DNA of 64,000 nt from Thermodesulfobacteriota bacterium (lineage in GTDB: Bacteria; Desulfobacterota; Binatia; Bin18), in the NCBI GenBank assembly GCA_964291405.2, contig OZ219926.1, positions 4,064,001 to 4,128,000 on the forward strand, in the 5' to 3' direction. Position numbers and translations under genes: made by a program. The notes under the pieces were generated by a model. That model searched no databases. It was not told where the DNA came from and saw only the letters and a list, made by a program, of their open reading frames with translations. Positions within the stretch are counted from its first letter, which is position 1. Each line of letters opens with the position of its first letter. Of this stretch, positions 40,633-43,261 are shown piece after piece.

Positions 40633-40733
40633 ATACTGCTCCAACCGATACCGGGGTGTCTCCTCTAGGGCTGGCGTTCTCGTGTATCAGTCCGAAGGGC
40701 TGCTGGCCAGTGAGAGCCCGGCGTGGTAGTGTA

Positions 40734-41612
40734 TCAGTTTGAATTTCTTTTTTTGTACGGGCCACGCGGACCAGGCTTCGGGGCTCGTGCATCCATCAGC
40801 CCTACGACCCACTCCATGTCGTGTAGCGTATTGTCGATCCCGGCTGCCATTGCTGGGGACATTTGCAGGGTTTTGTGAATTCGGCAGAAGTTGTAGTGCA
40901 GGAAATACAGCGCGATCATATAAAAATGGTGCTCGATCTTTTTTGAAAAAGCATTGGTGAGCCGTGTGAACCGACGCATACTCATTCGCATAGTCAAATT
41001 CTGGCGCTCTACATAGCTGGTTGAAATGTGGTCAGGATCAGGGTTGCCCGAGACTGGCGACGGACGAGCCCCAATACACTCAGCAGGGCTGTAGCGTCGC
41101 TCTGCTTCGGGCGGCACGCCGTACAGCTTCATCAGTTGCGCGTAATCAACCTCACACCCGAACGCATCTTCTACAGCATCCAGATAGGCCCTGTGGCCGT
41201 CCGTTGTGAGTTGAACCCGACGGGCGAGACGCCCGGCCACATCCTGCATGAACTCGTAGGCATAGCCACCATCTCGGCCCCCAAGCAGATATGACACAAT
41301 CAATTTGCTGTCTGCATCTATTGCTGTCCAAGTCCATACGTCGCCAGCTTCATCCGGGGCTGCCTTCGCTTTCGGCACGTTCTTCTCTTTGGCATAGACA
41401 TAGGACCAGATTTCGTCACACTGTACTCGCTGAGACTGCACATTGCGGACATGCTTGTTATGGTACTCAGCGGCTGCCTGCCCAGCTTGAATCAGAAGTT
41501 TTTTGACAGTGTTGATCGAGACATCAGCTACGCGGCTAACTGCCCGCATCGACATCCCCTCAACCAGCATATTGAGAATTTGTACCCGCTTGTGAATTGG
41601 GAGCTTGTTCAT
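40734..41612 (-). CDS. IS1-family DDE transposase, single ORF, 292 aa
   Basis: HTH GMSMRAVSRVADVSINTV; DDE in QCDEIW / TTDG / YVERQN; RRFTRLTNAFSKK; stop codon lies inside the inverted repeat. Confidence 0.92.
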   Translation of the reverse strand: MNKLPIHKRVQILNMLVEGMSMRAVSRVADVSINTVKKLLIQAGQAAAEYHNKHVRNVQSQRVQCDEIWSYVYAKEKNVPKAKAAPDEAGDVWTWTAIDADSKLIVSYLLGGRDGGYAYEFMQDVAGRLARRVQLTTDGHRAYLDAVEDAFGCEVDYAQLMKLYGVPPEAERRYSPAECIGARPSPVSGNPDPDHISTSYVERQNLTMRMSMRRFTRLTNAFSKKIEHHFYMIALYFLHYNFCRIHKTLQMSPAMAAGIDNTLHDMEWVVGLMDARAPKPGPRGPYKKRNSN

Positions 41613-41619
41613 GCTCCTA

Positions 41620-41648
41620 ATTGTATGAAATTTTATGCTTACTGTCAA
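41620..41648 (-). promoter_or_regulatory. Sigma70 promoter of the transposase
   Basis: TTGACA-17 nt-TACAAT, ending 7 nt before the ATG. Confidence 0.8.
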
Positions 41649-41718
41649 GTAAAAAGTTCATATAATTATATGTCTAGCGTCAATATTTATGAAAGACTCT
41701 TTTCCCTATAGATAAGAA

Positions 41719-41752
41719 GAAGCCGCCCCAAGATTCTTCCTGGGGCGGCTTC
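41719..41752 (-). terminator. Intrinsic terminator between cargo and transposase
   Basis: GAAGCCGCCCCA-10 nt-TGGGGCGGCTTC, followed by TTCTTAT on the minus strand. Confidence 0.75.
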
Positions 41753-41790
41753 CTTTGCTGAGGTGAGAGGAAAGAGAAATTGTCGAGAAA

Positions 41791-41976
41791 TCAATAACCT
41801 TCCGGTTCTTTACGCATTGCCGGAGCCTCTACATTACCGTCATTCTCGTGTATGTCTATGTTAGTCGGCGTGAATCCCGTCAGATTCTCCGTCAGGACGA
41901 TCTGGCGTTCCAACTGATGCTGGAGGATTTTTTCCATCTCCTCCCGCGCTTCCTGTTCGGTCGGTCGCTTTGTCAT
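41791..41976 (-). CDS. Small acidic ORF (61 aa) overlapping the 3' end of the protease gene
   Basis: AAAGGAG-8 nt-ATG; MTKRPTEQEAREEMEKILQ...; ends just before the terminator. Confidence 0.5.
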   Translation of the reverse strand: MTKRPTEQEAREEMEKILQHQLERQIVLTENLTGFTPTNIDIHENDGNVEAPAMRKEPEGY

Positions 41977-42859
41977 TTTTGGACTCCTTTCTTTTCGCCG
42001 TGCCACTGAGACAACGAATAATAGGTGTTCGTCTGTTGTCCTTCCTTCTGATCTCGTTCCGTGCCTGTAATCTGAGCTTGTCTACTAGCTGGCGTTCGTT
42101 GGCTGTTAAATCCCGGACATTTTTGAATAGGCTGCTCGCTTCATGGATATCTATAACAAAAGAATGGGACGGATAGGTTTGTGTCAAATGTTCTATTGCT
42201 TTGTCCTTTAGATTTCCTGAGTGTACATTCAGTCTTTGAGCATAATCCGACGCAATGCGCATTGCGCGTAATTTCTCACCAACTTCCATTGGGTCAATCT
42301 GAGAGAATATCGGCGCATAAAGGCCAGTCACTAGTTCAGATGCCGATTGCGTGGCTGTCTTAAAGGAAATGACTGCCTCCGTATCGGTTATTATACCTGA
42401 AAATATATCGGCATGTGTTTCAATTGCTGATTTTATTAGATGGTCTATGGATACCGTGATTGTCAACCCGGATTGGCGTTCAGCCAGGTTATCCGTTTTG
42501 TAAGTCTGAATGTCGATAGGTCCTATTTCACCATAGGGCGCAAAAGCAACACTGTGTGCTCCTACTGCTATCAGGGTACCAGCACTCTTACACAATCCAG
42601 AAACAAGGACGGTGAAATTCTCGTACTTGTTTTGCATATACCTGGCCATCTTATATGCTGCATCAGGATTTCCACCATGCGTGACCAGAATAAGAATTGC
42701 GTTTTTCTTGGCCTTTTGCTTGTGTACCTCTTGAATGAACGTCAGATCAGCGCCTCGTAGAATCTCGCCATTATACAAATAAACATCGCTGTCACTGTCA
42801 TCACTGACTGCCCTAGCGAGTTCCGCAAGTTCTGATTCTGTCACACTGTTATCAGGCAT
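41861..42859 (-). CDS. SDH-family ClpP-fold serine protease (IS cargo)
   Basis: THGGNPDAA, CKSAGTLIAVGA (catalytic Ser), GPIDIQ, YPSHSFVI. Confidence 0.88.
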   Translation of the reverse strand: MPDNSVTESELAELARAVSDDSDSDVYLYNGEILRGADLTFIQEVHKQKAKKNAILILVTHGGNPDAAYKMARYMQNKYENFTVLVSGLCKSAGTLIAVGAHSVAFAPYGEIGPIDIQTYKTDNLAERQSGLTITVSIDHLIKSAIETHADIFSGIITDTEAVISFKTATQSASELVTGLYAPIFSQIDPMEVGEKLRAMRIASDYAQRLNVHSGNLKDKAIEHLTQTYPSHSFVIDIHEASSLFKNVRDLTANERQLVDKLRLQARNEIRRKDNRRTPIIRCLSGTAKRKESKNDKATDRTGSAGGDGKNPPASVGTPDRPDGESDGIHAD

Positions 42860-42872
42860 CTTAGTGAGGAGC

Positions 42873-43109
42873 CTAGCGGTCTCTACTCTTTTCAGCCCAG
42901 CGTGCAGATGCACCTTGCTTGGCAATCGCGGTACGTTGGGCAGCGGTGAGCTTCAACGCACGCGCACGTCCGCCTAGCCGTCCAAGAGTCTGGCCGGCGG
43001 TTCGTGTTTCGATCTGTTCTGTTTCCTCACCTGTAGCGATCCGCGCGACCGCCACTGCTGCCCCAACCACATCACGCGGACGTACCTGTCCTTGTGGTCC
43101 TCGTGGCAT
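42873..43109 (-). CDS. Small basic IS-associated protein (78 aa)
   Basis: AGGAGG precedes the ATG; RPRDV...VARIATGE...LGRLGGRARA...RTAIAKQGASARW. Confidence 0.82.
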   Translation of the reverse strand: MPRGPQGQVRPRDVVGAAVAVARIATGEETEQIETRTAGQTLGRLGGRARALKLTAAQRTAIAKQGASARWAEKSRDR

Positions 43110-43137
43110 GCGTTGCACCTCCTGTCCGTCGGTCTGT

Positions 43138-43182
43138 ATATTACGCATAAGTGTGAGCATGTCAACTTATAAATTATAAGTT
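43138..43182 (-). promoter_or_regulatory. Promoter and palindromic operator of the cargo operon
   Basis: TTGACA (43160-43165)-16 nt-TAATAT; AACTTATAA-A-TTATAAGTT (43164-43182) overlaps the -35 box. Confidence 0.6.
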
Positions 43183-43261
43183 CGCTGAATGGCGTGTGCG
43201 AGTGTGGATCGAAGAAAGTCTGAAAAAATCAGATTTCAAACTGATACACTACCCCCGGCGT

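Follow-up and report, generated by a model that had tools for sequence, protein, structure and literature searches.

An intact IS1-family element with a conserved small gene and an exchangeable cargo slot

The window analysed here is a 64,000-nucleotide stretch of contig OZ219926.1 (positions 4,064,001 to 4,128,000, assembly GCA_964291405.2) from a Thermodesulfobacteriota bacterium of the Binatia. It contains, at 40725..43253, a complete element of 2529 bp with all its genes on the minus strand: an autonomous and intact transporter insertion sequence (IS) of the IS1 family, which recently inserted between genes and duplicated 8 bp of its target. A transposase gene lies at one end and a gene for a 78-amino-acid (aa) protein, here called p78, just inside the other. 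Very probably the element is an IS1-type transposon whose p78 and transposase genes frame a variable slot that is filled, in its relatives, with toxin-antitoxin or anti-phage genes. The slot of the window copy holds a predicted serine protease and a small open reading frame (ORF).

An intact element and its empty site

40717..40724: left 8-bp target-site duplication, CCCGGCGT, present as a single copy at the empty site of the congener G010
40725..40743, plus strand: terminal inverted repeat at the transposase end, GGTAGTGTATCAGTTTGAA; the family consensus in relatives is GGTAGTGnnTCAGTTTGAA
40734..41612, minus strand: single-ORF IS1-family DDE transposase, 292 aa; PF03400, with invariant DDE residues
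42873..43109, minus strand: p78, a small basic protein of 78 aa, predicted to form three helices; GGAGGT before the ATG
43235..43253, minus strand: terminal inverted repeat at the p78 end, the reverse complement of GGTAGTGTATCAGTTTGAA
43254..43261: right 8-bp target-site duplication, CCCGGCGT

The terminal inverted repeats are perfect over 19 bp; with up to three mismatches allowed, two matches occur in the whole window and none in 100 shuffles. Both element ends open with GGTAGTG, and ends starting GGnnnTG, together with a target duplication of 8-9 bp, are characteristic of the IS1 family. The passenger region is AT-richer than its surroundings (GC 0.42-0.49 over ~41450-42950 vs 0.57-0.65 in the flanks). 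In G010, sequences 95% identical to the left flank and 89% identical to the right flank are joined at one CCCGGCGT. The two flank matches share the same 8-bp overlap in G007, and the flanks abut in G002. A reading made from the letters of the stretch without database searches (the sequence-only reading) had described an intact, recently inserted element with perfect 19-bp repeats, an 8-bp duplication, and AT-richer passengers, and had suggested a search for the empty-site allele. All of this description holds, and the congeners preserve a precise unoccupied site.

The transposase is encoded by one uninterrupted ORF whose stop codon (TGA, 40734-40736) lies within the terminal repeat. It passes the Pfam cut-off for PF03400 (DDE_Tnp_IS1; 28.4 bits vs 24.1) and matches NCBIfam NF033558 with E = 1.4e-18, its score of 67.6 being below the cut-off of 100. 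It aligns end to end with 34 relatives, and D66, D138, E202, and R209 are invariant across the alignment (n = 35 sequences). Classical IS1 encodes insA and insB, joined by a -1 frameshift, and InsA combines a zinc finger with a helix-turn-helix (HTH). No insA/insB frameshift pair is found here, and the uninterrupted 292-aa ORF groups the element with the single-ORF IS1 members. The assignment to the IS1 family and the description of a single-ORF DDE transposase ending inside the repeat, both made in the sequence-only reading, were therefore upheld. Plasmid homologues 68-69% identical to the transposase carry no annotation beyond 'IS1 family transposase', and their neighbours are labelled hypothetical. 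Congeners also harbour a second IS1-type clade, whose transposases are 41-45% identical to that of the window (for example G031:C1:39872-40624 and G018:C1:3279515-3280282), and a search for p78 in these two genomes gave no match.

The element is single-copy in its 4.95-Mb genome. The other trace of it is an 82-bp fragment at G000:C3:1572455-1572536, which matches the central part of the transposase gene at 95% identity and is evidently a remnant of an older copy. The same contig (G000:C3) holds eight pairs of element-like ends that lie 242-534 bp apart with no transposase between them (2715028-2715273, 2943759-2944000, 3015742-3016072, 3241804-3242132, 3621896-3622309, 3807881-3808414, 3808166-3808414, and 4877182-4877511). 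Three of the eight are flanked by perfect 8-bp duplications (CTTTGTTG, ATAAATAC, and CTGCCGGG), and the genome has 29 end-like sites vs 6 for the reversed control. These short pairs may be non-autonomous derivatives resembling miniature inverted-repeat transposable elements, which the window transposase could mobilise.

Two further features adjoin the insertion point. The sequence GGCGTTCTCGTGTATCAGTCCGAA (40673-40696), 79% like the element end, lies 47 bp to its left. We considered it as a relic end or target signal and set this aside, since GGCGTTCTCGTGTATCAGTCCGAA is also present at the G010 empty site; it therefore predates the insertion, and its position may reflect chance or a target preference. 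At ~40666-40670, eight congeners (G001, G004, G005, G006, G011, G015, G017, and G018) are longer by ~860 bp. The extra DNA encodes a 270-aa protein in G004, the one congener of the eight that was examined, and the difference is not another IS but a native gene, absent from the window genome, G010, G007, and G002.

A conserved frame around an exchangeable slot

Related elements were found through the transposase and collected in two sets. A scan of one genome per species (set 1) gave 84 relatives, of which 79 loci were kept and 44 complete elements of 1396-4646 bp delimited, L048 and L049 being identical. A scan of viral contigs (set 2) gave 275 relatives, of which 80 loci were kept; these yielded 67 complete distinct elements of 1323-4797 bp, none identical to an element of set 1, for a total of 111 related complete elements. 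Perfect 8-bp duplications flank 36 of the 45 elements formed by set 1 and the window, and 44 elements of set 2 have a duplication, of 8 bp in 43 cases. The family occurs across several phyla as well as on viral contigs: set 1 hosts are mostly Alphaproteobacteria and Acidobacteriota, with further members in Nitrospirota, Thermodesulfobacteriota, Ignavibacteriota, Zixibacteria, and Actinomycetota. In L048/L049, two p78-transposase units lie in series inside one outer pair of ends, the inner unit ~65% identical to the outer, and the sequence suggests that one element probably inserted in or beside another.

The element and its relatives form a clade defined by ends conserved as GGTAGTGnnTCAGTTTGAA, an IS1-type DDE transposase, and p78 just inside the opposite end. 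By profile search, p78 is present in 43/45 complete elements from genome contigs (window included) and in 67/67 from viral contigs. It is usually the first gene inside the end, on the same strand as the transposase; in L029, L031, L032, and L040 it lies on the opposite strand immediately upstream of the transposase, and additional genes stand between the end and p78 in L011, L013, L038, and L081. The distances of p78 and transposase are correlated (Mantel r 0.69, 0/2000 permutations as high, 29 elements), as expected from shared descent of whole elements, which is the very point tested. Among 301 genomes sampled from the class to which the window belongs, 77 have p78 (E ≤ 1e-8) and 92 the transposase (E ≤ 1e-15), tallies that include the unpublished genomes G108 for p78 and G108, G219, and G223 for the transposase. 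By manual comparison of the matches listed, with G108 left out, at least 60 of the 79 strongest p78 matches lie 61-3920 bp upstream of a listed transposase match on the same contig and strand, and the gap is below 300 bp in just 2 of these 60 pairs. The other 19 are at contig ends, on other contigs, or have a partner that is not among the transposase matches listed.

Between these fixed parts, content changes faster than the frame. L016 and L017 are 93% identical in the end, part of p78, and the transposase, and are unrelated in between. L011 and L013 belong to one assembly and have transposase DNA 92% identical; one carries Panacea and the other MazEF with a 338-aa protein of no known family, which makes them a natural pair for studying cargo exchange. 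Other matching frames with differing cargo are L028/L077 (82% identical) and L021/L023 (81%). DNA similarity between matched frames restarts 20-50 bp ahead of the transposase gene. A maximum-likelihood tree of 38 transposase rows requires six changes of the label 'SDH protease', which applies to the window copy (see below); well-supported branches force at least three, and sister tips carry differing cargo. The variable region thus defined lies between p78 and the transposase and, in some relatives, also beyond the transposase. A fixed chassis of p78 and transposase with a swappable cargo slot, as the sequence-only reading had envisaged from one copy, is accordingly a property of the family. 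Homologous recombination in the conserved p78 and transposase segments, between elements that share a cell, would exchange the cargo, and the cargo would pay for persistence of the element through addiction or host protection.

Cargo of set 1 was taken as 150 mechanically called ORFs of at least 75 aa, transposase excluded, and compared with Pfam (E ≤ 1e-3). The families found were SDH protease (7 elements), HTH-M78/M78 (4), SocA/Panacea (4), and PemK/MazF (3, one with MazE), together with GmrSD, a STAND NTPase, PIN with HTH_17, Fic, DUF4258 with HTH, RhuM, two DNA methylases (one fused to Mrr), and dCTP deaminase; Bro-N, P63C, DUF488, and a proteasome-like protein were among the others. PADLOC models (E ≤ 1e-5) matched 17/150 of these ORFs, among them RmrT/RmrA, HEC-06 (GmrSD), SoFic, capP, PDC-S05 (RhuM), PDC-S13, PDC-M19A, PDC-M34A, methylases, and two generic HTH-type matches. 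As a control, 150 of 279 flank ORFs called in the same way gave 6/150 PADLOC matches at the same threshold (one AbiD, five generic domains or group II intron reverse transcriptase) and 0/150 matches to toxin-antitoxin Pfam families; the remaining flank ORFs were metabolic, ribosomal, or otherwise housekeeping.

For set 2, 150 of 153 cargo ORFs of at least 80 aa were compared at stricter thresholds (Pfam E ≤ 1e-5, PADLOC E ≤ 1e-20). Pfam families were M78 (12 elements), Panacea (6), SDH (4), AAA_21 (2), nSTAND1 (2), methylases (3), one type I-like restriction-modification system, HigB (2), ParE, HipA with PemK, and Abi_2. PADLOC matched 31/150 ORFs in 27 elements: RmrA (11), PD-Lambda-2_B (7), HEC-04 (2), HEC-09 (2), methylases or restriction-modification (4), IetA, and PDC-S13. 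The same cargo classes recur in both sets, and the pattern therefore replicates. Judged by these profile matches, the cargo of the relatives consists mainly of predicted toxin-antitoxin modules and known or candidate anti-phage systems, such as Rosmer-like HTH-M78 genes. The suspicion that such elements carry defence or addiction genes, raised from the window sequence together with a proposal to run PADLOC on the cargos, is in this way borne out for the relatives.

The protease module, p78 and regulatory sites

41620-41648 (read 41648-41620), minus strand: promoter-like region of the transposase, TTGACA-17-TACAAT, 11/12 positions
41636-41651 (read 41651-41636), minus strand: TACTTGACAGTAAGCA, over the -35 box of that promoter-like region
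41717..41754, minus strand: terminator-like hairpin with a 17-bp stem, between cargo and transposase
41791..41976, minus strand: acidic small ORF, 61 aa; AAGGAG 8 nt 5' of the ATG
41861..42859, minus strand: SDH-type ClpP-fold serine protease of 332 aa; C-terminal tail predicted disordered
43138-43165 (read 43165-43138), minus strand: promoter-like hexamers of p78, TTGACA-16-TAATAT
43164-43182, minus strand: perfect 19-bp palindrome AACTTATAAATTATAAGTT at the p78 promoter

The protease and the small ORF lie between the terminal repeats and are passengers within the element. SDH proteases are described in Pfam as having catalytic Ser, Asp, and His in that order. In the window protein these correspond to S93 (KSAGT), D117 (GPID), and H233, which are invariant in 8/8 element-borne proteases and in 41/41 closer homologues. 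There are 678 homologues at E ≤ 1e-10, some named 'SDH family Clp fold serine proteinase' or 'SppA', and many of those 42-70% identical carry a precomputed PF01972 assignment. In the predicted model (pLDDT 80.6), the N-terminal half is ClpP-like, the second half helical, and the tail disordered; the closest Foldseek matches are the NfeD 1510-N structure 3viv (2.0e-4), SppA 3rst (4.2e-4), and ClpP chains, and a profile search of the PDB gave ClpP 1y7o at 2.4e-7. The protein thus resembles SDH, SppA, and NfeD proteases in its Ser-Asp-His order, KSAGT nucleophile, GPID aspartate, and predicted NfeD/SppA/ClpP fold, and differs from them in its helical C-terminal half, disordered tail, overlapping small ORF, and residence in a mobile element. 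It also matches phrog_21683 (E = 2.5e-72), a phage family without known function. Other mobile elements carry homologues too: one follows the integrase as the next annotated gene of a temperate Burkholderia phage, another adjoins XRE and ImmA genes in a Klebsiella prophage-type phage, and a third lies on a 9.8-kb plasmid together with genes for a Zot-domain protein and an integrase.

The 61-aa ORF overlaps the 3' end of the protease gene by ~115 nt in a different frame. A 71-aa reading from a GTG was dropped for the ATG at 41976, which is preceded by AAGGAG. Small ORFs that overlap or abut the protease 3' end are found in the window element, L058, L043, L026, and L059, and beside the three phage and plasmid copies. 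The window ORF is 43% identical to the like-placed one in L058, and the motif ILQHQxER is common to it and the like-placed ORF of the phage copy; those of L043 and L026 share PFPYG..GW, and in L043, L026, and L059 the small ORF begins at the protease stop. The sequence-only reading was right in naming a small basic protein and a ClpP-fold protease, and its listing of the small ORF as a separate gene gives way to this overlapping arrangement. By their architecture and the company they keep, the two genes would have a toxin-antitoxin-like or exclusion role. That they form a two-gene module of the defence or addiction type, in which the protease is held in check by the small protein or acts on it as substrate, is a possibility that we place somewhat short of even.

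The p78 protein is conserved in an N-terminal block (~ MPKGPxGxKRPxDV..A..V..IATGE) and a C-terminal block (~ G..GG.ARA..L..E.R..IA.KAA.ARW). The protein collection holds at least 7956 homologues, none with a Pfam domain, and those in Atlas bear automatic names only. Searches of p78 against Pfam, NCBIfam, and PADLOC gave no match, PHROG gave one weak match only (phrog_2384, E = 0.001), and the best hit among solved structures by sequence was at E = 0.32, no relative. The model comprises three helices (pLDDT 84.5); its fold search returned no Foldseek match and a best VIA Z of 3.9. The sequence has no cysteine and no Pfam HTH match; lacking cysteine, p78 is unable to form a zinc finger and is not of the InsA type. 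The C-terminal block also occurs fused to larger proteins, namely a RhuM-family protein (L077:3706-4947, minus strand) and open frames of 217-381 aa, and some of these fusions are divergent from and adjoin a transposase of the clade (G283:C47 and G070:C1). Where p78 lies, how conserved it is, and how it varies together with the transposase suggest that it takes part in transposition or in regulating it. Whether it is more exactly a nucleic-acid-binding accessory or regulator of transposition, standing in the place of InsA without being its homologue, we regard as an evenly balanced question.

The hairpin between cargo and transposase folds at -33.6 kcal/mol (z -6.14, 0/200 shuffles as good), which agrees with the terminator seen there in the sequence-only reading and would insulate the passengers from the transposase. 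Among the relatives, 75/111 elements have TGCTTGAC (up to one mismatch) in the 150 bp preceding the transposase vs 2/111 control windows, at a median of 38 bp before the ATG, and the palindrome TGCTTGAC-N2-5-AAGCA is found in 46/111 elements vs 0 controls. At the other end, GCTT-N4-10-AAGC occurs in the first 150 bp of 21/111 elements vs 2/102, 4/111, and 3/102 in controls. This strict palindrome, enriched in the relatives, is absent from the window element, whose transposase promoter has the variant TACTTGACAGTAAGCA and whose p78 promoter has another palindrome. Such motifs hint that one regulator may act on both promoters in the relatives.

Alternative explanations, known systems and significance

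That IS elements can capture passengers is known, and the transporter-IS concept appears in PMC9330008. The element could accordingly be an ordinary IS that caught neighbouring genes by chance, with no dedicated slot and passengers that have no role for it, and the many cargo ORFs without a recognisable family would fit this. Yet cargo is almost never housekeeping, while flanks are; its position between the two conserved segments is constant, and near-identical frames hold different cargo there; and its classes recur in two independently drawn sets. The narrow functional repertoire already argues against chance capture, which we consider highly improbable. Even less credible is that the protease and small ORF serve transposition itself, for example by processing the transposase or p78, rather than being cargo. 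They are co-oriented with p78 and the transposase inside the element, and the protease ATG follows the p78 stop by 13 nt, but the protease occurs in only 8/45 and 4/67 elements, and its homologues live also in phages and a small plasmid, at which three loci the family inverted repeat was not found and no transposase is annotated in the stretches shown. A third possibility, that the module helps the mobile element in another way, by degrading a host factor, countering host defence, or regulating, deserves more weight than these two, although we still think it somewhat unlikely. The window cargo has no defence-library match, and the homologues reside on phages, which also carry counter-defence genes, within a phage family (phrog_21683) that has no assigned function; against this, the module uses the same slot as classic toxin-antitoxin and defence systems, and it resembles toxin-antitoxin pairs in having two genes, of which the small acidic one overlaps the other.

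For p78, the alternative is a general regulator or silencer of whichever cargo lies downstream. It opens the cargo operon, its C-terminal motif recurs in larger proteins such as the RhuM-family protein and the 217-381-aa frames described above, and some homologues are labelled 'histone H1' or 'RNA-binding' in databases. However, p78 persists where the cargo is on the opposite strand or beyond the transposase, and in the two elements that leave less than 300 bp between the two frame genes; its divergence also correlates with that of the transposase. We therefore judge cargo regulation an unlikely function for p78, and favour a part in transposition.

Several observations weigh against the overall reading of a frame that carries defence and addiction genes. 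The window copy is single in its genome, and evidence for its activity is one insertion event. Perfect duplications are lacking in 9/45 and 23/67 delimited elements, so some boundaries may be wrong; in L125, for instance, one cargo ORF encodes an ABC substrate-binding protein. Since the search for loci started from the transposase, the elements are related and the counts not independent. Many cargo ORFs match no family, and the calls are mechanical, some being spurious in GC-rich DNA. The four element proteins of the window gave 0 matches to PADLOC-DB 2.0 at E ≤ 0.1, and a defence role of its own cargo is consequently one by association alone. The protease scores below curated cut-offs (PF01972, 22.8 vs 31.3; NF047768, 33.2 vs 250). 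Since p78 matches neither a Pfam family nor, by sequence, a solved structure, and its model matches no fold, its role is a guess from position and conservation. Finally, promoter-like sites in the region number 3 vs a shuffle mean of 3.4; they are not enriched and are consensus matches only, and transcription of the element genes is thus something we infer. The sequence-only reading had given the passengers their own promoter, to which the promoter-like hexamers upstream of p78 would correspond.

Compared with known systems, the element resembles single-ORF IS1 in its PF03400/NF033558 transposase, GGnnnTG ends, 8-bp duplication, and small transposase module. It departs from the IS1 family in having a conserved extra gene, p78, unrelated to InsA, and cargo that is nearly always present. 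The ISfinder table for IS1 includes a single-ORF subgroup of up to ~4.6 kb, which suggests that some members of the clade are perhaps catalogued there as sequences. Variable defence systems are carried at phage and satellite hotspots, and Benler et al. in 2021 reportedly described Tn7-like transposons with defence cargo. The clade shares with both a mobile frame with a variable defence set; however, those frames span tens of kilobases, with several transposition genes or a whole phage, whereas the frame here is ~1.2 kb.

Transporter IS (tIS) are IS derivatives with passenger genes (PMC9330008). Like them, the present elements hold passengers inside the terminal repeats that move with the element; what sets them apart is that the passenger region behaves as a slot between two conserved modules with a narrow toxin-antitoxin and anti-phage repertoire. 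In Tn3-family transposons, according to PMC7157771, embedded toxin-antitoxin pairs have been gained on several occasions, and stabilisation of the transposon is their proposed effect. In both cases toxin-antitoxin genes adjoin the transposition module. Set against the Tn3 family, the elements described here have another transposase family, lack both resolvase and res site, and are smaller by a factor of five to ten; they also carry full defence systems (Rosmer, GmrSD, restriction-modification) besides toxin-antitoxin genes. IS1 membership and IS with passengers are therefore already known, and the Tn3 toxin-antitoxin pairs are a close precedent (PMC7157771).

A literature search, which did not cover supplementary files, found no paper describing the clade or p78 and none reporting defence cargo in IS1-type elements, nothing on ISMhu11 or on Rosmer with a transposase, and two passing mentions only of IS1 with passenger genes. 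Tentatively, and at odds clearly below even, we propose that p78/IS1 elements are a widespread minimal platform that shuttles and recombines toxin-antitoxin and anti-phage systems, that their slot is a catalogue for new systems, and that p78 represents a new family of transposition regulators, possibly acting through the palindromic TGCTTGAC...AAGCA sites that the relatives have at both promoters.

Defence and addiction genes ride on large mobile elements. If the proposal is true, a frame of ~1.2 kb made of two ends, p78, and a transposase, which carries a single system and swaps it, would be smaller than any other such vehicle, and it would help explain how single defence or toxin-antitoxin modules reach ordinary places in the chromosome, remote from defence islands. 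For finding the family, p78 and the conserved ends offer a simple search handle, and p78 is a testable candidate transposition factor. The unannotated cargo ORFs, the protease pair of the window included, would become candidates for new systems.

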